From NCBI RefSeq assembly GCF_024521635.1, contig NW_026250427.1, positions 186,001 to 250,000 of the forward strand: DNA of 64,000 nucleotides, written 5' to 3'. Shown here in pieces: positions 39,999 to 62,003 of the stretch. The notes beneath the pieces were generated by a model, which did not search any database, was not told where the DNA came from, and was given only the letters and a program-made list of their open reading frames with translations. Within the stretch, counting starts at the first letter, position 1. Every line of letters starts with the position of its first letter. The position numbers and the translations under genes are program-made. Origin of the DNA: Tricharina praecox. Its lineage: Eukaryota.

Positions 39999-41674
39999 TT
40001 AATCCTTCCTCAGCGGCTTCTGCCAATCGTTGACGTGCTTCCCGATGATGGCCGCTGCTTGCTCCGGCGTGTGTTGACGACCCAGCGCCTCGACGAAATC
40101 ACCGTCGGGATCTGCCGGTGTCAATCAGCTTGCGATCCAATCGAAAAACGGTGCGGCAGATAACCCTTCGATGCAAGGGTCGGAGGGGTGGAGTGCAGGT
40201 GATTAGACAAGCGTCAAATGACAGCCGACGAACTTTCTCCGCCGAACGCACAGGAGCAGCCCAGCGTAAATCGTGGGGCACGCTGTGGCATCGCAAATGA
40301 CGATCTCACCTGCAGCTTTTCTACCGCAGGCCGGTACTCGGAGAACCGGCACGTCACTGGCTCGGCGATCTCCGCCCATGCATAATGAAGGTGTCGAACC
40401 TCACGGGGAAATCAAATGCGCATCAGAATACGGTGGGTGCTCAACATACCCATCAAGTAGAAGTAGATTGAGTGGTCAACGAGGTAGTCCTGTCCAGGCT
40501 TGATATCGGGCGGCGTCGAAAAGTATACGCGGTATGCTTTGCAGAGCTGTTTGATCTGATCGTACGTGCCTGTATCCAAAGGTTAAGAGATCATGCAGGC
40601 TAAAGTGAACGTTCGATACCGAAGGAAGGAAGGAAGTAGCCTTTCAGAGTACGAGCGATAACCGTCGATAAGGGCACACGCTACAAGACTGCGAGGAAAG
40701 CGTCTCCATCCTCCTTCCAATCGCGCCAATGGTGTGAGGTGGTGATATTACTGACCGGTGAATCCGATAAGATCCGGGTGGAACTCTTCCAAATATTCCT
40801 TCATCTGCGATGCGCATCGAACCAGGTTAGCCGGCCGGCCGGGCCATTTCGGTAGCAAAGCTCCGTTCCCTCGATGGAGAATCGACTCGCGGGATAACGT
40901 ACGACTTCGGGCGTATCGCGTGCCGGATCGCAGGTGATGAACATCGGCGTCATGATGTTACCGTGGTTTTTCTTGACCACTACAGACCGATCCTTCGTCA
41001 CTCGTGAATTTCCCCAAGAGAAGAGCCGCAAAGAAGGAGAAAACCATACGATCGATCATCCCGGCCATTTTGTCCAGCTCCTCGGGGCATATATCTGGAC
41101 AATGGGTGAATCCGAAGTAAACCTGCGACGCATTGTCAGCCATCACCACCCCATCGACATCGTCGCGCATTTCTTCCCTTCTGATCGCCAACTCACCAAT
41201 CGGTACTTCCCCGCAAACTCCGCATCCTCCCTCACTTTCCCATTCTGATCCACGAAGCCCGTCACCGGGCCTCCGACCTTAGGCCTCCCGACACCCTTTG
41301 ACAACTCGGCGATTTTCTTCCTCGCCATCCGTTCCTTCTCCATGCGGAAGTAAAACGCCAGTCCGACACCGGAAGCGACAAACAGAAGCCCGGCTTTCCA
41401 CGAGAACGGCTACCCCCCCACCCCAGTGATCAGCTACTGCCATCACCATCACCACCACCATCCCGAAGTCTCATCGCGTGTAGCTGGGGGGACGGGGAGA
41501 CGGGAGGGTACAGGTACTGACTCCACTACGATACCTCGCCTTAGCCTCCTCGACGGTTTTGAACTTCTGGAGCATGGGCGACGAGTGGAACTGCTTCGTC
41601 CGGGCAATACGAAGGAGGCATTGCGGCGACGGCGCTGGGCGGTGCAGCAGACGGAGGGTCTTGGACGCGTTCAT
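39999..41674 (-). CDS. SCO1: Mitochondrial copper chaperone SCO1/SCO2, multi-exon
   Basis: Presequence-like N-terminus, single [17 protein letters not shown] (CxxxC), [24 protein letters not shown]. Confidence 0.93.
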
Positions 41675-41849
41675 GGTGGCGTACGCTGGTGGGGGTGATG
41701 TATGGCGGGGAATGGTGGGATGTGTAGCTTCGGCAACCAAGTGGTTCGATGACGAGGGTGGCCCGACCTAAACTTTGATCCGTCGCCAAGCCGGGCCGGA
41801 TTACGTAGCTCAGCTACATGGCGTCTCACTCGGGTTACAATGAGCTTTG

Positions 41850-42716
41850 TGTTGATGATTCATCAGTCATCTCGCGTCTGCTTGCCTATCCTAGCTTACC
41901 CTAGCTCATAACAACCTTGGCACTACCGCAGACTTCATCATATCCCCATCTTCTCTTCTTCAGCAATCCATCTCATTACGATCATCTCGTATAAACTCTC
42001 CATCTTATATCTCTAACAGGTTATGAGCCCGGGTCAGCGTAACTAATATCGACGATCTCATCCTTTATCCTCAACAAGACATCAAAGACCCGTCCGAGAT
42101 CTGCAGGATCCTTCGAGACAAACTCGACAACCCGGCCAACGAAGTGGACCGATCGATTATGGTCCGGGGATTCTACAAACAGTCCCCCGTCCCGAATGAG
42201 ACACTCCGAAGCTACTTCGAGCGTCTCATCCAATACCGTCCCCTCTCAATGGCACAGAAGAGCAAATCACGGATGCCCTTGAGGGTGGAGCGGTATAGGA
42301 TAAGACGCTCAAAGTAGCTTCGGAGCGTCTCGTTTGGGGCGAGGGACTGTTTGTAGATTCCCCGGACCATAATCGATCGGCCCACTTCGTTGGCCCAGTT
42401 GTCGAGTTTTTCTCGAAGTATCCTCCGCATCCCGGACGGGTCTTTGTTGCCCCCGAAGGCTTGTTGAGGATAAAGGATGAGATCGTCGATATTGGTTACG
42501 CTGACCCGGGCTCGTAACCTGTTGGAGATATAAGATGGAGAGAGTGTACGAGATGGTCGTAATGAGATGGATTCCAGATCTCGGACGGGTCTTTGATTCC
42601 CCGAAGGCTCGTTCTCGGCCTTGGTCTTGGTTGGTATGAGCCACTCTAATGTTGATTGTCACAATTAAAATCTAGGATAGGCAGGCAGACGTGTGATGAC
42701 TGATGAATAACCAACA
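41850..42716. mobile_element. Foldback made of two convergent Ty5/copia-like 5' ends (LTR + PBS + gag fragment)
   Basis: Left: TGTTG...TAACA 41850-42018, then PBS GGTTATGAGCCC. Right (minus): TGTTGG...CCAACA 42716-42520, then GGTTACGAGCCC. Arms are reverse-complementary around a ~19-nt loop at 42255-42273. Confidence 0.8.
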
Positions 42717-43628
42717 CTGCGCGAGGAAATAAACTTGGGAACGCAGAGTTCATGGTCTAGAAAGGCTGTGTGCGAAATATAATTGAGGATTCCAACTCCC
42801 CCAGCCCCTCTCTTTGATAACGGAGGGCATCGACGTCTGTATGTTGGTTTCTAAGGCGGCGGACGGCGAGGAGGGAGTCTGAGTCAGCGATGCCTCTGGA
42901 GAGCATCAGGAAGAACAGCGGTTCGAGGGATGGAGGGAGTGGAGGCGTTTGGCTCGTTATCCGGAGTGCAGACTAGTCTTGGTTAAATATCTGCTGACAT
43001 GATGAATTAAGAAAAACGATATGGGGTGTGTTGTTCATGAGGAGGATTGATCCACGCCGATAGACCCCTCGCAAGACTACCATACACGCCCGACTCGCGA
43101 TTTCCGCAGGTGCTATTTACTCGCCACCGCCTCTGACGATGTATAAGCCGGATAGAGCCAGCCTGTGTAGCTGTGGTGAGCAGGTTCTAACAGGAGGGAT
43201 AGCTATCCCGACGCTAGTAAGCGTCTGCCTCCAGTGGCTGGTTAGGTTCGAGAAACCGTTTGAATCGAAGTGAGAAACAAATGGAGACATTGTTGGAGAA
43301 AGAGTTTAGCAATCTCATGGACGCGATAGAGTCGTAGGTAGGTATCAGGGTGTCAATCGGGCACGATGCAAGTTTGGAACGGCCGCAGAGCACAAACAGA
43401 ACCCTCTCGGCAATATCGCACTGATGCCCGCACTCTCTGAGATATAAGCCACAGGCCAGAGCCCGTTCATAGATATCCAACTCGATCCAATCCAGCATAA
43501 TCCAATCCCACGCAATCCAATCCGAAATCCCTCAACTCAAACATGCAAAATCCCAAAGCAAAGTCACAAAACTGGTATACCCAACCACGAAGCATAACCA
43601 ATCCATCCACCGCCACCACCAATGAACC

Positions 43629-43835
43629 CTAACGATGCGCGTAAATCCCCCTCGCCATAGCCGGCAGTATCCTCCTCTTTGGATTCCGGCGGCAAGGATA
43701 GCAGTCAATCGCATGCCGCGTCTCGAGCGGCACCTCAAACGTGTTGCAGTGCAACGGGTACCTGTTCGCGCACGGCTTCTCGCGCGTGATGTAGGAATCC
43801 CCGCATGCGAAGATCTGGAGTTTGTACTGGCACAT
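43629..43835 (-). CDS. Small cysteine-rich hypothetical protein (68 aa)
   Basis: MCQYKLQIFACGD...C...C...CYPC pattern of small fungal putative zinc-binding proteins; ATG at 43835. Confidence 0.5.
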   Translation of the reverse strand: MCQYKLQIFACGDSYITREKPCANRYPLHCNTFEVPLETRHAIDCYPCRRNPKRRILPAMARGIYAHR

Positions 43836-44860
43836 TGGGGGAGTGGGATGTGGGATGTACTTTGGCGGCGAAGTAGCGAGTGACGGTGAAGCGAAGGTGG
43901 GGGGGTTGCCGTCGATGCGAGGTGAATAGGACCTAAAAGTGGCTGTCGGTAGCAACTGCAGCTGGAGCTGGGAATCGGAAGGCTCCTAATCGAAGAGCAG
44001 CGGATAGCTTGAATGAGGTGTAACTAAAGCTAGGAAATAGGAAGAGCGACGGATAGTTTTGCTGATGCTCGGTTTCGCACGATCGTCGACGATGCGAAGG
44101 GTATTCCGGACTGAAATCGGCGGGGGGCCCTCGCCCCAAATATAAGACCCAGTCCCACACACTCTCTCACACATTCACTCTCTCAATCTCTCACTCACTC
44201 GCTCACCTCACTCCTCCTCCTCAATAGTAGGCGACGTAGCAAGGGATGAACCAGCCCGCCCGCCCACCTTGGCTCGCACACACAAGAACAAAGGACTGGA
44301 ATCGAAGCCGCGTGTCTGCAGGCCGCCCTCTTGCATTCGATTCCTCTTGCGCCTTGCGTCCGGTTAGTGGCGGGTGGGGTGGAGGAGGAGGAGGAGGAGG
44401 AGGGGGAAATGGTTCCATGTAAGGGGGTGTACCGTAGTAGTTGAAAGTTCACCAGGCTGCGTGCGGGAATGTTTGCACCTACTTACTCACTTACTTGCCT
44501 CCAGGTACTTGATGGGATGGGAGCGATAAGGATCCGCCATTATGATGTGGTATGTCGATATGCTTAACAGGCTGGATGGGGGGCTGGATCGCGTGTCGAG
44601 TATGCGGGAAGCCGTGAGTCGTGACGGCTTTGCTGAGGCGGAGATATGTACGGACTATATAGTATGGGATTGAGGATGCAAAAACAAAGGTGGTATGATC
44701 GTATGAAGACGCTCAGCTCTTTTGCTGGCCGATCCGGAAGTCTACCGTTAGTAATAGAGTGTGTAAATCTTCCGACGGTCCGAGTGGAGAATCCGCCCAT
44801 AGGTATGGACATACATGATACACTGGCGCACCCGGTGACGGTGGCGGTGACGGCATTTGA

Positions 44861-44919
44861 CTCCTCTCCTCTCCTCTCCTCTCCTCTCCTCTCCAGTCCA
44901 GTCCAGTCCAGTCCAGTCC
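44861..44919 (+). repeat. Compound microsatellite (CTCCT)n(CCAGT)n
   Basis: Seen directly. Confidence 0.9.
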
Positions 44920-46578
44920 ACTCCTCTTTCACCCGCGAACGGAAGTGAAGTCAAAGTGCAAGTGCCTCTGATCCATCCATCATCTTACCCACGGGGAAGC
45001 GGGAATCGCACAACAACTGAATTCTGCACATCGAACCTGTTGGGGGAGATTGGGCCGGATGGTGCCGGTGGTGGCGGTGGCGCTTTTTCCCTTCTTTTCC
45101 TTTTGAATTCTTTTCTTTGTCCGAGCCGGCGTAGGTACATGCTTGGGAAATCTATGAAGGACAATGGACAATGGATATGATTCTGACGTTTTCTGATCTA
45201 TCGCCTTCGGTACATAAGCACTCTACGTGCAGCCGGTTCACTCGCATTCGCATGGCGGGATGGGTTACTACCTGGCAGTTAGCCAATCCGCTGCACGGCT
45301 ATCGGAAGTGAAGGAGCGCCGGCAACCTGCACGCTCCCGCGAGACGTCTCATCTTCAGTAATCAGCTCGACGAAGATGCCGAGATTTACGTACCGTATTG
45401 CACTATGGGAAAACATCCGTGGTGGAGTCGTGCTTCTCACGAGTTGCGTGCAGTGCGGTGTTGAGTCGAGAGTTTGTATGATACTGTATTACTCTGCTCT
45501 ACCATGGAGGTGCTTCAAGTCTGACATCCCAGTCCACCCCACCTCTACCTCCACACCACCACCACTTCCACCACCACTTCCACCACCATTTCCACTCCCC
45601 TTCAATCCCCTTCACTCCCATCCACTACTACCACCACCACCACAATCTCCACCTCTTCAAACGCCTGGGAGTTCGATCCGGGACCGATGCACACGACTAC
45701 CGGCATAGTTCCGATGCAGGAAATCATCTACCGGTACCTCTGCTCTGCACGGAATCGGGACTGCCAGTAAACAAAGGAAGAGAAGCGGGCCGCTACCTGC
45801 CGTGAAAGAAGCTGGAATACCGGTACATAAAGCGGTGTAGCAGAATCTGTCGCTCTTGCGTCCGAAACCATGTGTGTCCATCAGCTCTCGCACACAGGAA
45901 CGAGATGGAGATAGCAGTATCCAACTCTCCAGCGTGCGGGAGACGAAACCACGAATGAATGAACGAACGAAATGGAGATATCCAACTCTCGAGCGTGCTT
46001 GAGGCGCAACCACGAACGAAGAAAGCAACGAACGAACGTCGAAACGACAGAAGCTGGCCCGGATGAATGGACGACCTGGTTGGTCGGGCGGTTCCTGCAT
46101 CTAGAGTGCATTCCAGCCAGTTGTTCTGCAGGGAACCGCAACGCGAGCTGCTGCGACAGATAGATTTTTTAATTTTTTTCTCGTGGTGCTGCTGCTGCCA
46201 GCGCATCCTACCTGCCAGGGCCTTGTATCAGAAACTCCCGCGACCTAGACCCCCAGCCGCCCTGCCCTGTGCACGCAGATGCAGATGGGCGCCGTCGCCA
46301 GTGACCAACGAATATGCTTAAAACCCCACCTACAGAACTGCCTAGCGACGTGCTGAGGATCTAACAGCGAGTAGGAGCGCGCATACGTGATGCACAGCCT
46401 TCTGGGGGAAAGGACGCCCCCTCCCCCCCCCCCGCCGAAAAGACCTGTTTAAATGTCTGGCGCTGAGGCAATGGGTGGAACGCTGAACAAGAGACCGTGG
46501 GAAAGTTAAAGTCCTTCACATCCATCACGACGTCCCACAATCACCCCTCCCCTGCCTACACACTCGAACTCGCCCTCA

Positions 46579-47633
46579 ATGTTCGCCCGCGCAGTCACCC
46601 ATCAATGCGTATCGATACCACGGCTTCTTGCAGTCCTTGCGGTCGTGCTCGCCCTACATGCCACCCTCGTCTCGGCCCACATGGCGATGGCGGATCCGCC
46701 AGCCCTGCGGTACAAGTCGAATCCCTACAAGGTTGCCGAAGATTACGATTACCTCTCGCCGCTGTCGCCGTCGGGCAGCAACTACCCCTGCAAGGGCTAC
46801 CATGAGGATCTCGGGACACCCGGCGGAAAGTCCGTCGCGACCTACAGTCCCGGGGGGAGCTATAAAATCCGGTGAGTTGACACCCATGGCTAGTTACCAC
46901 GCGATGGTACTCTGATGTGCTGGAAACAGGCTCGATGGTTCGGCGACACATCTCGGCGGCTCGTGCCAGCTGTCGTTCTCGTTCGACGGAGGAAATTCTT
47001 GGCAGGTCATCAAGTCATTCGTCGGTGGGTGCGTGAAACCGGACCAGGGAAGTGATCAGTCGTTCTCATTTACGGTGCCGAAGGGGACGCCTGGCGGGGA
47101 AGCGCTGCTAGCATGGTAAACCTTCCCCCGAACCTCCCACCACCGCGCTTTCCGCCTCCTTCTAACGCTTGCCATTCTCTCCCAGGACGTGGTTCAACAA
47201 CCAAGGCAACCGCGAAATCTACATGAACTGCGCGGTAGTGACCATCTCCGGCGGCAAGCGCAAGCTGATGGCGCGCGAGGAATTCAACGTACTCCCGTCA
47301 ATGCTCAAGAAGCGCGCACTGGGGCCCCAAGTCTTCCTCGCAAACCTGGGCAACGGCTGCACCACGCAGGCCGGTGCCGACGTTGAGTTCCCAGACCCGG
47401 GGAACAACGTGGAGCGCGGAGGCGCGGGGGATACTGCCGCGCCCGTGGGGGATTGTGGGAAGGTGGTGGTCAGCGGAGGGGCTGGAGGCACCGGCGGCGG
47501 CACCGGAGGCGGGAAGAATTGTGAATACTGGAGGGCTCAGGGTTATTACTGCTCTGGCGCGATCGGAGTCGAGGTGCAAAGGACGTTGGTCGTGCTGGTC
47601 GTCGTGGCGGCGTTTGCGGCAGCACTGTGGTAG
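46579..47633 (+). CDS. AA11 lytic polysaccharide monooxygenase (chitin-active family), secreted, likely GPI-anchored; introns 46872-46929 and 47116-47185
   Basis: Signal peptide ending VSA|H (His1), YPCKG, ATHLGGSCQ, WTWFN..GNREIYMNCA, hydrophobic C-terminal tail. Confidence 0.88.
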
Positions 47634-50601
47634 GCGAAAGCAGTACGGACGGTCAGCGGGCATAGGGGAACGGCGTTTATCAGTTGTATATATCATTTGT
47701 TTGCTTTTACGAGGTCAATGCCATGAACTTCATTGGAACGGGAAATCTACCAGTGTCTCCCTGGTCGGATGCGGCAGCTAGACGTCTCGAGCGGGCGCAA
47801 GAGCGGGCACGGTCCATCACACGCATCGGTAGAGCCAACTACACATAGCACGGTCCTGTGGTTTCCTATCCTGGATTGAAAACATATCAGACACACATTG
47901 GCCTCACCAGAGCGAACCGCATCTCGCAGAGTGATGAGATGAAGATTTGCGGATGCAAGAACGCTTTATACACAGAATTCCTCATTCCATCTCCTGTTCA
48001 CCTCTGAAGAGATAACAATGCCAATGCCAACCACCAACCATAGGCTGCACAACGACTCCATCGATTCGATGCGTTCAAAACCTCCCGACTAGCCGCCTTC
48101 GACACTGCCAACATCTGCCGTATGCAGACATGGAAATATCAGCTAGGGAATTCTGCGCACTCTACTATTCTTATACTATCGCTTCATCCGCCGGCCACGA
48201 GCAGCGGGCCGTGAGAAAGCACTACCGGTATCAATGATCACCGCACGACAGCACCAGACGCCCGTCGGCCAGGCCATGCTTGAATACTTGCAGCCATACC
48301 GGTATCCACTACTCGGCGCAACGATCGACCCGCGCGGGAGTATCCCCTAGGTAGTTAACTAGCAGGGTATACCGGAAGTTTGGCGCGAGCTCTCCCGCTT
48401 ATAGTAGCCTTCATGTCGAAGGGCAAGTCGGATCCGCGGCGTGGAGCGGAAGTCACTGCCTTTCAAGTTTCCGGCCGGTTCTGCGGAAGTCGAAAAAGAA
48501 GTTGGAACTTCACCGGCAGGAGAACGTCCCCGACCTGTGAAATCGACGCTTCGATCCACCTACATATAAGAGGCGGCTGGAGGGGCTGGAGAGGCCGGCG
48601 GTAGAGGAGTCAGTAGATGCTGAGTTTTTTATCCTCCGGGACTACCGACCAGAGGATCCTAGAAATCGCGAGGATCTCGTGCATGTGACGAGCTGCCCCA
48701 ACTACATACAGCGAGCACATACAGCGAGGACGTACGATTCGTAAAGGTCGTTCATGTGCAGGCTGTCTTGTCCTCCTTGTTCTGCTGCAACGCAAATCGA
48801 TTCACAGATTACATGTGAGAGCTAAGTATCCAGCAGGGCAAACATGGTCATATACAGGATACACTCCCGTTCATGTGAGTACATACCGTACCACCGCCCC
48901 ATTTACGGGGAAGAAAGTCCACCTTCGCCAACTCCAGATCTTGGATTCTTGGTGGACTGACCCCAAGGTTCGAACTTTGAACCGGACGCCGGCGCTGTGC
49001 ACACGGCGGGACCTTGCTTCCTTGTTTCCACGCTCAAGTCGGAAGTCGCACCCGGTTCGTGCCTTTGCATACGGTACTTGTGTTCCGGGGACGCCGCCGC
49101 TGCACTGTAAATGTGGGGAATGGGGAATCCGACGGGAGGCTGCAGATATGGGATGATTCCAGCCCTCCAGACCGATACCGTTTCTGCGGAACCCGTGATT
49201 ACCCCCGCCTCCGCCCCATACGGGTAGTAAGGCTGAGCGGAAACAAAAACCACCCGAACTTGTCTCAAGGATCCTCCGGCAGCGTTTCGAGACAATCATG
49301 TACTGTCATATGTAGGTGCATAGTCCAGGTACATAATGTAGGTACATCATTCCTTCTCGAACCCGGCAACAAATCTTCGGCAATCTCGGCAGTCTATTTT
49401 TGCCCCCCTGCGGCTGCGCATCGGGGCAGGACGCTAGCGTTTCGAGATGGGGGTCCTTCGCGTCGGCACTGGGCAGCATCTTCTTCCTCGATTAATGTTC
49501 GCCCTACATATCGCGTCAGCTATGCAAGAAAATGTCCTACTGAGACCTGTGTCGTTTAAGCGAAACAGTGGCCGATAGACGCCGACGTCACTTGAATCTC
49601 CGGGACGCTGCTGCATGTTGCCGGCGTCGGCTGTAGTCTGCTGCTGGTGGTAGTGGTACTGCTGGTGGTGGGGCTGCTGCTGATGGTGGTGCTGCTCGCG
49701 CTCGCTCGGCAGTGGCGATGTAACTCGGGAGCTTGAGCTTAACTGTTCTTCACTAATGGCGTTTCATGTCTGAAGAGAGTGAGAGTGAGGCAAGGGGAAT
49801 GAATCTGAGTGCACGTTAACCCGCTCGCTCGCTCGACCAACCACCCGATCAACCATCAACCACGCTCCACTCCAACCCCCCGGACATCATCAACATGGGC
49901 GAGTTGGCTGTGCTGTGCTGTGGTTGAATGTTCCGACCCGGAAGCCGAGCCGTCTCGTCCCTTGCCCTTTCCACGACTCATGCTCCCGGCCTGGGATCTG
50001 GGCGCAGCAAACTATACTTCAGCTTGGGTATGACCTCGTCCTTGGATGCATAAAGTACATGATATTAACATGTGCTTGCAATATGCTACAGATTCTTTTC
50101 GATGTCTGTTCGTATGCGTGCAATTGTGGATCCGAGACATGGCGCCCTTCGTCCAGAACTTCAGAGTGATCGGTTGACCTTTCAATGTCGTCAAGACATC
50201 GTGGCTGACAACCGATGCTACCACCACGGATTAAGGAATAAGAGCTGCAGTTCAACGAATCAGGTTAGCGGCTTACATTCCATCCTCCCTCCCGGGACAT
50301 GGTTCGTTTCTTTTGCTTTCTTCCTTCCTTCCTTCCTACTTTCTTTCCTTCCTCCTCTACAGTCGTCTTGAAATTCTTTCTGCGCGTTTATTTCCCTCTT
50401 CTCACTTTCTTTTCCTCCGCACCGTCATTCATTACTTATACTCCTCACTCGCCCTCCCTCCCAGTGCCTGTGAAGGACTCTTTTTGTATCGTTTATTCGG
50501 CCCAAAACCGCTTCTTCAACTCCTCCCCCAGTGCTCCTTCAAGTTGGTATCCTCAGGAATCCCCCAACGACCACCAAACTCCACATCGCCACTCCTGCAG
50601 C

Positions 50602-53100
50602 ATGAGGCCCCTTCAAACAGTCCTGTTCCTATGCATAGCCCTCGTTACCACGGTTGAGGCAAACATCTCCTTTCCCGCACCCTATATTGAGTGCCCGAAG
50701 AGTGTGTTCCAATGTCTCCGAGGCATGTCATGTGTTTATGAGCTGTGAGTACCCCCAATTCTACTTCCTATTTCGGTGTCCCTTTCCATGTGCATGATTC
50801 TGCTTCTTTCCGATACACCTTAGTGCTGTGGATACCCGTCTTGGCCTCTCTTTATACTGTACGTTTTTCGGTAACTGACCGTTTATAGTTGCGAGTACCG
50901 CCGCTCAGGAGGTCTCAGCCGTCGACGCCCATGGCCCGTGGCCAATGCCAGCCCAGTGGCCGTTGCGCAGGATGCTGTTCCATCTTCTCTGACCGAACCT
51001 GTGCTCTCTCGGCCCATCTTGATCTCTCAAGCTGTTGCTGGTGGTCCTCCCACTCAGGATGGAACTTGCGGCAAGCTCAAGGGAGATACCACCTGTGTCG
51101 GCTGGTCTACTGGAGAGTGCTGTTCGATGTACGGCTGGTGTGGAAAAACTGGTCTGTCACGCTATCGGTTTAGGATTAAGCAGTTGCTGACACAAGGATA
51201 GTTGACCACTGTGGCAAGGGATGTCAGTCCGGCCCCTGTACGGAGGAGGGGGGAACTCCGGAAGCCCCTGGCCCAGCCCCGGCTCCGATCACTAACGGTG
51301 GTCGCTTCGATGTCATCGGCCAGTCGGGGGTGCCGGCGATGCACGCGGCTCTCATGCAGAACGGGCGTGTCATGTTTCTGGACAAGGTTGAAGATTACAC
51401 CCAGCTGAAGTTGCCGAACGGTAGATTCGCATACTCGAGTGAATACAATCCGGAAACAAACAAAGCCGTGGGGTTGTCTTACAAGGTATGTGCTTCATGG
51501 TTTCTCACTGGTGAATCGATGTGCTGATTGTTTGGCAGACCAATGCATTCTGTGCTGGCGGTACTTTCCTCGCGAACGGTGACATGTTGGCTATTGGCGG
51601 GAACGGCCCACTCACTTGGCTCGACGATTCGGTCAGTGATGGTTTTGACGGTCTGCGGTTCCTGACTAGGTCTTCGACAAATGCTGCGCTTAATGGGCAA
51701 TCATGGAGGGAGCCTGGGCAGAAGTTGAATTCGAAGCGTTGGTATCCTTCCGTGCAGACACTGGCCAACGGAAAGGTCTTTGTGGTTTCTGGGTCGATCA
51801 ATGGGTAAGTCACATCCTCCCGCACTTGGCATCCGGTGTACTGACAACTTCGCAGACTGTATGTATCGACTCCGCGAACTATGCTGGGGATTTTCTAACA
51901 GACGCAGTGATCCGTCAGTGCCGGCGAACAACAATCCAACATACGAGATCTTGTCTGCCACCGGATACCCCCAGGGCGGTAGCATCCCAATGGAAATCCT
52001 TGAGGAGAATCAGCCGTACTACATGTACCCATTCATGCACCTCCTCAAAGACGGAAACATTTTTATCTTCACCGCCAGGGCTTCGCAGATCTTTAACATC
52101 AACACCAACAGTATCGTCAAGAAGCTCCCGAACCTCGCTGGAGACTACCGAACCTACCCCAACACTGGTGGTAGTGTCCTGATGCCTCTCTCGAGTAGCA
52201 ATAACTGGGCCTCGACGGTGATGATTTGTGGTGGTGGAGCGTACCAGGTGAGGAATGATCTAGTATTTCGGTATGCGTGTTGCTAAGTCGTGCACTAGGA
52301 TATCACTTCACCCACAGAGCCCAGCTGCGGTACCATTTCTCCGGAGTCTGCCAACCCGACCTGGTCAATCGAGTCCATGCCCGAGGGACGTGGAATGGTT
52401 GAGGCCGTGCTGCTGCCCGACGGCACTGTGCTGTGGCTGAATGGAGCGAACCGTGGTGCGCAAGGCTTCCTCTTGGCCACGGATCCCACGCTGCGGCCCC
52501 TCCTCTATGACCCCAAGAAGGCAAAGGGCAGCCGTTGGTCACAGCTGGCGGCGTCTAAGATACCGCGTCTCTACCATTCGGTGGCCCTCCTGTTGCTCGA
52601 CGGAACCATCCTGGTTGCCGGTAGCGGCCCGAACGAGATGCCAGTCCTGACTGCAAAGCCCGGAAATCCCTACCCCACCGAGTTTCGCGTCGAGCGCTTC
52701 ACTCCGCCGTACTTGCAAGGTTCCAAGGCGTCGCTCCGTCCGACCGCTCTCCAAGTGCCCGCTACGGTCAACGCCAATGGAGGTTCCTTCACTGTCTCGT
52801 TCAACGTTCCCACCTCCGCTAAGAGCGTGAAGATCGCGTTGTATCATGGAGGCTTCGTGACCCACAGCCTCCACATGGGACACCGCATGTTGTTTTTGGA
52901 CTTCACCGGCTGGAAGGCCGGACAAGCTAAGCAGACGCTTACTGTCAAGGCACCGCCGAACTTGAACGTTGCGCCACCGGGTCCCTATGTGATCTACGCA
53001 GTGGTGAGTCCCCCCAAATCCTTCATGCCGAATCACTGCTGACCACCATCTCAAGGCCGACGGCATCCCATCCGTGGGCAAGTTCGTCAAGGTCGCCTGA
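50602..53100 (+). CDS. AA5_1 copper-radical (glyoxal oxidase-like) oxidase with N-terminal CBM18 chitin-binding domain, multi-exon
   Basis: Signal peptide; CCSMYGWCG hevein motif; catalytic motifs AFCAGG, YRTYPNTG, PRLYHS, FVTHS; C-terminal APPGPY. Confidence 0.9.
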
Positions 53101-61930: not shown

Positions 61931-62003
61931 GCTCTGGTAGCTCAGGGGTTAGAGCGGTCGATTGCAGATCGACAGGTCCCTCGTTCAAATCGGGGTCAGA
62001 GCT
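61931..62003 (+). tRNA. tRNA-Cys (GCA), intronless
   Basis: Acceptor stem GCTCTGG/TCAGAGC, D arm, anticodon arm GTCGA-TTGCAGA-TCGAC, T loop TTCAAAT, discriminator T. Confidence 0.93.

Follow-up and report, generated by a model that had tools for sequence, protein, structure and literature searches.

To our knowledge, inverted fragments of transposable elements (TEs) are among the few known routes to a heritable silencer acting in trans, and the examples that we know of in filamentous fungi are scarce, in Pezizomycetes in particular. Hairpin-RNA (hpRNA) and inverted-repeat siRNA loci of Drosophila and Arabidopsis are defined by their small-RNA profiles and by their dependence on Dicer and Argonaute. 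In maize, Mu killer (Muk) derives from the DNA transposon MuDR, has near-perfect arms, gives rise to proven siRNAs, and causes heritable silencing of active MuDR. As reportedly described by Slotkin, Freeling and Lisch in 2005, Mu killer is an inverted duplication of a transposon 5' end from which read-through transcription produces a hairpin RNA.

To place a foldback located upstream of the SCO1 gene of Tricharina praecox among these systems, we analyzed it within a 64-kb stretch of DNA (the window). Like Muk, this locus is an inverted duplication of a transposon 5' end, with RNA that would be read through from the flank; it differs from Muk in its source, which is an LTR retroelement, in the similarity of its arms (85-91%), and in that no live target family was found. 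Like the hpRNA loci of Drosophila and Arabidopsis, the locus contains an inverted repeat that is long, imperfect, and a potential Dicer substrate, known here from sequence and RNA contigs. Its component parts, in turn, resemble those of Ty5 (Saccharomyces), copia (Drosophila), and Tca5 (Candida), with TGTTG..CAACA-type ends and a tRNAiMet primer-binding site (PBS) directly after the LTR, and relatives of its gag point to the PF14223 type of hemivirus-type Ty1/copia elements. In contrast to Ty5, copia, and Tca5, each arm comprises only ~400 bp of a 5' end, with a short LTR (169 and 197 bp) and with neither start codon, pol, nor 3' LTR. As identity to the closest gag proteins is no more than 37-43%, the copia family of the locus appears to be undescribed. 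By descent, its sequence places the locus as a remnant of this hemivirus-type family; by mode of action, its closest analogs would be Mu killer and other hairpin-RNA loci.

The foldback spans 869 bp and is composed of two arms (41849-42254 and 42274-42717) whose features are listed in Table 1.

Table 1. Coordinates of the foldback, its component parts, the adjacent gene, and the RNA contigs aligned to it (positions within the 64-kb window).
Feature	Position	Strand	Description	Basis
SCO1 gene	39999..41675	-	ATG at 41675
RNA contig, run X3	41784..42032	.	Left flank, left LTR, PBS	Contig alignment
Whole foldback	41849..42717	.	Two copia-type 5' ends; LTRs outermost, truncated gag ends face to face
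Left LTR	41850..42018	+	169 bp, TGTTG...AACA	Sequence, arm alignment
Segment skipped in one RNA contig, run X4	41986..42510	.	525 nt; joint at 6-nt direct repeat CTCGTA
Left PBS	42019..42030	+	GGTTATGAGCCC, directly after LTR	Pattern match
Leader	42031..42077	+	Without start codon; contains the ~34-nt identical run
Left gag fragment	42078..42239	+	54 codons, DIKDPSEICRILRDKLDN...YFERLIQYR; ~residues 90-142 of copia-type gag
Loop	42255-42273	.	19 nt, palindrome center; reads on as gag in the shifted frame of the left arm
Right gag fragment	42290..42451	-	54 codons; 12 amino-acid differences from left
RNA contig, run X3	42400..43067	.	Right gag, PBS, LTR, and 350 nt of right flank	Contig alignment
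Right PBS	42508..42519	-	GGTTACGAGCCC; one change inside the anticodon complement	Pattern match
Right LTR	42520..42716	-	197 bp, mirror of left; mid-part differs from left by several indels
Gag-derived patch in right LTR	42575..42613	-	~37 nt	Repeat search, blastn, arm alignment

The arms form three ungapped inverted blocks (I1, 159 nt, 88%; I2, 124 nt, 91%; I3, 49 nt, 88%), and blastn of the region against itself returned a single gapped inverted alignment (619 columns, 84.7%). The longest run of Watson-Crick identity between the arms is ~34 nt, starting at position 42045 in the leader. Plus-strand RNA of the foldback had a minimum free energy of -607.7 kcal/mol, far below that of dinucleotide shuffles (-263.2 +/- 8.3; z = -41.4), none of which (0 of 20) matched it, and minus-strand RNA reached -608.9 kcal/mol. 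The predicted fold contains 308-312 arm-to-arm pairs, and the duplex is imperfect, with a perfect complement in the right arm for just 19 of the 396 left-arm 21-mers. The first-pass annotation, made from the sequence alone, had described inverted arms of ~400 bp around a 19-nt loop and had expected a long dsRNA: the repeat search, blastn, and folding all recovered the former, and folding predicts the latter, as a long imperfect duplex.

Both LTRs carry the Ty1-like TG...CA ends by which Ty1/copia elements are recognized, and a PBS complementary to the anticodon stem-loop of tRNAiMet, a second mark of these elements, adjoins the 5' LTR. An excerpt of PMC4139406 gives TGTTG...CAACA as the conserved terminus of Ty1-like elements. 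PBS matches were found at only two positions in the 64 kb, one in each arm. The left PBS is identical (12 of 12 bases) to the 3' end of oPA1732, a published antisense probe for yeast Met-tRNAi; it thus pairs with an internal stretch of tRNAiMet and contains the complement of the anticodon. The right PBS agrees with this yeast probe end at 11 of 12 bases. According to the excerpted text of PMC5371799, priming of Ty5 proceeds from a cleavage inside the anticodon loop of tRNAiMet. Coordinates and probe match together agree with the earlier proposal of a TGTTG..AACA LTR and a half-tRNAiMet PBS in each arm. The middle part of U3 aligns poorly between the arms, with a 66-nt stretch in one facing a 95-nt stretch in the other.

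Behind the PBS, each arm has ~50 nt of leader and then passes directly into the middle of gag, with no ATG; only residues ~90-150 are represented, and the ~85 N-terminal residues are missing from both copies together with the start codon. A 1-nt frameshift interrupts the left gag, which then continues as LNGTEEQITDALEGG through the loop, and its post-frameshift segment LNGTEEQITD aligns by eye with LEGTPEAILD and LSGSAEEISED of two relatives. In the right gag, GCCTTCGGG adds 9 nt where the leader joins its 5' end. Direct scanning of both arms against Pfam returned no family at E <= 10, and a word-based homologue search with the left gag piece returned six longer-protein candidates, none at E <= 0.01. 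A HMMER profile built from the two arms, searched exhaustively against 1.84 billion representative proteins, identified three proteins at E <= 1e-3 and none at E <= 1e-10. Two of the three are copia gag proteins, assigned to PF14223 at E = 4e-19 and 7e-21 and aligned with the profile at residues 86-142. The remaining one is repetitive in sequence, and its Pfam matches include no retroelement family. Pairwise BLASTP of the arm gag against the two relatives gave 43% (E = 5e-14) and 37% (E = 8e-11) identity, and a homologue search with one of these proteins returned only unnamed JGI and ENA proteins.

Judged by their LTR ends, PBS, and PF14223 relatives, the arms can be identified as copia-type 5' ends, in agreement with the two Ty5/copia-type 5' ends with gag fragments noted in the first-pass annotation. 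Its suggestion that a search with the arms would lead to the parent family was borne out only in part, in that distant copia gags were recovered (37-43%) and no close member was present among the 1.84 billion proteins. A 19-nt leader pattern searched in metagenomes returned two loci, both of them chance matches of 19-21 nt by blastn. The only Rfam match, to mir-4484, reached 23 bits where the gathering score is 90, and was dismissed as chance. Searches for a pol or integrase relic (RVT_2, rve) to the right of the foldback were negative in 46 ORFs at 42.6-51.7 kb and in 10 ORFs at 43.5-50.7 kb. With neither pol (protease-integrase-RT-RNase H) nor a 3' LTR, what remains here is a fragment and not an element; it has no coding capacity and, as a relic, would be unable to move.

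The right LTR also contains the copy of gag sequence that had been put at ~40 bp in the first-pass annotation and that we delimited to ~37 nt (Table 1). Its segment 42575-42597 is 100% complementary to 42081-42103, in the left gag, and 42578-42613 repeats 42429-42465 in direct orientation at 86%. The patch carries both the right gag's GCCTTCGGGG and the left gag's ATCAAAGACCCGTCCGAGATCTG. Since it unites variants that are now split between the two gag copies, it resembles a copy taken early from the ancestral gag.

The first-pass annotation had taken the many synonymous differences between the arms as a sign of two diverged family members, which our comparison does not favor. The 54 aligned gag codons differ at 21 nucleotides, of which 7.5 count as synonymous and 13.5 as non-synonymous, against 4.9 synonymous differences expected from site counts (P = 0.09-0.19; dN/dS ~0.5); dN/dS is not significantly below 1, and the synonymous excess is suggestive at most. 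Over 332 ungapped nt the arms differ by 19 transitions and 17 transversions (~11%), a ratio that rules out RIP as the source of their divergence. Both gag copies end at the same point, within the 19-nt loop, and a simple estimate places the chance of such a shared end at ~0.008 for independent truncations of a ~5-kb element. Taken together, the shared loss of the gag N-terminus and the shared end point are the signature of one inverted duplication. In addition, the palindrome boundaries coincide exactly with the LTR tips on both sides, which points to a snap-back or inverted-dimer cDNA, as chromosomal fold-back repair is not expected to end there.

We therefore regard one inverted duplication followed by ~11% neutral decay as likely, with a real minority chance left to two templates. 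The U3 mismatch and the late synonymous differences (six of the last seven gag codon differences are synonymous) would also fit two diverged templates, and the missing target-site duplication counts against a single integration: no 5-bp duplication was found, the flanking CTTTG (41845-41849) and CTGCG (42717-42721) agreeing at 3 of 5 positions (chance P = 0.10).

The gene adjacent to the foldback is SCO1, whose exons encode a 265 amino acid protein that is letter for letter the NCBI SCO1/SenC-domain protein of Tricharina praecox (Pfam SCO1-SenC, 1.6e-8). The distance from the SCO1 ATG to the foldback is 173 nt, very close to the ~175 bp given before, and the end of the main mRNA contig (41695) lies 154 nt from the foldback. 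In three runs (X3, X4, and X7), contigs join 41409 to 41522, removing an intron at 41410-41521 that has GT..AG on the minus strand; the intron itself has depth 0 in each of these runs, which speaks against an origin of the contigs in genomic DNA at assembly depth. To the left of SCO1 lies an OPT transporter gene (36.8-38.6 kb).

Of seven sequencing runs found, four were aligned to the locus, namely the DNA run X1 and the RNA runs X3, X4, and X7. RNA was detected over the outer parts of both arms in two RNA-seq studies (X3 and X4), as the first-pass annotation had anticipated in proposing that the locus is transcribed. In X3, the SCO1 contig stops at 41695, apart from the two upstream contigs of Table 1, and no contig covers 42033-42399; in X4, a single 1419-nt contig is made up of 41300-41409, 41522-41985, and 42511-43052. 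X7 has no contigs to the right of 41670. The depth of the X3 contigs is ~1039 over SCO1 and 7-21 over the foldback, values that cannot rank expression. On the left, RNA contigs reach 65 nt beyond the left LTR and, on the right, 335-350 nt past the right LTR, and those of X3 and X4 match both arm-flank borders with 0 differences. Since contigs cross both LTR borders, transcription most likely starts in the flanking DNA and can be explained without an LTR promoter. The first-pass annotation had attributed the RNA to either LTR promoter; no LTR-initiated RNA was seen, and we infer read-through rather than LTR initiation, from contigs that give neither the strand nor the ends of the transcripts.

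The 525-nt skip in the X4 contig was ruled out as a spliceosomal intron, as none of the seven possible cuts at the direct repeat offers GT..AG on either strand. The skip reflects either a template switch during RT/PCR on a hairpin template or a microhomology deletion allele in the X4 strain. Template switching of reverse transcriptase, the subject of PMC2923612 and PMC5848618, is a known class of artefact. In general, a non-canonical "splice" across such a stem is more likely to be a template switch or a deletion than real processing.

Our analysis of the remainder of the window showed that positions 1-35349 hold a nest of Ty3/gypsy chromoviruses (RVT_1, RNase H, integrase, Tf2-type SH3, and chromodomain), in which several frames are open for 400-700 amino acids and seven LTR copies of ~690 bp are 93-97% identical. 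These LTR copies differ by 88 transitions and 64 transversions, without RIP-like bias; the family looks young and is possibly active. On the other side of the foldback, ~8 kb (42717-50870) contain no Pfam match in stop-to-stop ORFs of at least 70 amino acids and no internal repeats, a stretch that is unusually long as fungal intergenic sequence; low-depth RNA contigs reach at least to position 43300 within it. It is followed by a plus-strand gene (50875-53039) with a chitin-binding module and then glyoxal oxidase N-terminal and galactose-oxidase-like E-set domains. The sole tRNA gene in the window is a tRNA-Cys (GCA) at 61931-62003.

Taking this evidence together, we consider it probable that the foldback goes back to one defective Ty1/copia-type retrotransposon with a hemivirus-style PBS, of which it would be a palindromic relic in decay, transcribed by read-through. 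A single 5' portion (LTR, PBS, short leader, and gag residues ~90-150), with the gag start already lost, would have been duplicated in inverted orientation, most likely via a snap-back cDNA or an inverted-dimer intermediate. The arms would since have drifted ~11% apart, and would have gained the U3 indels and the small gag-to-LTR patch. Low-level RNA would come from the flanks, either as a divergent transcript of the SCO1 promoter or from an upstream start near 43060, and read-through RNA that includes both arms would fold into an imperfect duplex of ~310 bp. Dicer would probably cut this duplex, given that the related Pyronema confluens is reported to possess sets of RNAi genes (excerpt of PMC3778014). 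Given RNAi, the duplex would thus be a likely Dicer substrate, as a by-product and not as a demonstrated silencer. A single transcript with both arms, its hairpin in vivo, and its dicing would each be a step beyond the contigs themselves. In 15 of the 16 papers found to name Tricharina praecox, titles and opening lines of abstracts mention neither small RNAs nor this locus. In another Pezizomycete, repeats are known to undergo premeiotic methylation (excerpt of PMC13297926). The picture that results is that of an ordinary TE relic for which hairpin-RNA activity is plausible.

The first-pass annotation had gone further and proposed a Mu killer-type hairpin locus, in which parts of two diverged members would be transcribed from an LTR promoter and the resulting siRNAs would silence the copia family in trans. 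We consider this unlikely. The locus does offer a long, very stably folding inverted repeat of TE origin, RNA on parts of both arms in two studies with one contig linking the arms, a modest synonymous excess, and RNAi genes in a related genus (excerpt of PMC3778014), but the transcripts cross both LTR borders, few 21-mers are perfectly complementary between the arms, the shared truncations indicate one origin, and the synonymous excess is compatible with chance at the P values given above. Nor is a target visible, as near-identical elements were found neither among the 1.84 billion proteins, where no gag is closer than 43% identity, nor in the DNA contigs of run X1, where no contig other than the locus itself is >=90% alike on PBS, leader, or gag and only LTR bits of 36-47 nt reach that level. 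With close gag relatives absent from public protein space, the "family-wide silencer" of the first-pass annotation would today act without a visible object. This lack of a target is compatible with an extinct family and could, speculatively, reflect the past success of such a silencer. It is a long shot that the relic, which would then derive from snap-back cDNA, was retained by the host as a hairpin-RNA gene with divergent transcription out of the SCO1 promoter region, whose siRNAs would police copia elements or whose structured RNA would tune SCO1. A related proposal is a role in cis, with the foldback lying in a long 5' leader of SCO1 (minus strand, start at ~43060) or in a divergent non-coding RNA, and with the hairpin or LTR modulating SCO1. 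The X4 contig that runs from spliced SCO1 exons through 41985 to 43052, the common end of X3 and X4 contigs at 43052-43067, and the short distance to the main SCO1 mRNA end are all in line with it; yet a contig over two transcription units, with no strand given, does not prove one transcript, and the X3 SCO1 contig stops short of the foldback, separate from the upstream contigs. We hold such a role to be improbable.

Two further readings concern the reality and the mobility of the palindrome. A mobile non-autonomous foldback, either MITE-like or derived from a terminal-repeat retrotransposon, would be present in many copies, and its outer ends would be usable by integrase, as the exact LTR tips (TG..CA) found here are. 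LTR-like bits do occur elsewhere in the X1 sample, in contigs that match the LTR over 36-47 nt before parting into different flanks, but these matches are to short LTR pieces and not to the palindrome, the 64-kb window holds no second copy of any part of the foldback, and an arm divergence of 11% argues against recent mobility. Dispersed copies of the palindrome with target-site duplications, which the first-pass annotation had named as the mark of a MITE-like element, were thus not seen within the 64 kb, nor was a duplication present at this locus, and we give mobility only a slim chance. The other reading is an assembly artefact, in which two reads or contigs would have been joined chimerically at a repeat; certain errors in library preparation and assembly are known to generate palindromes. 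The whole foldback, center included, is covered with 0 differences by DNA unitigs of run X1, and one of them (42049-42489, 441 nt) crosses the palindrome center; X1 is possibly the window's own source, in which case its agreement would come from the same data. Nevertheless, the ~11% arm differences and the indels are not expected of an artefactual snap-back, and the RNA contigs of two other studies match both arm-flank borders without a difference, making an artefact highly improbable.

Were the locus a retained hpRNA gene, Pezizomycetes would gain their first described endogenous hpRNA locus of TE origin, and policing of copia elements by its siRNAs, if real, would explain the lack of live family members. 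In this respect the locus is a clean, testable candidate, as it adjoins a housekeeping gene, has visible RNA, and is present in one copy in 64 kb. For the present, its main value is as a well-resolved example of a palindromic retroelement relic and of the way in which such a relic decays.
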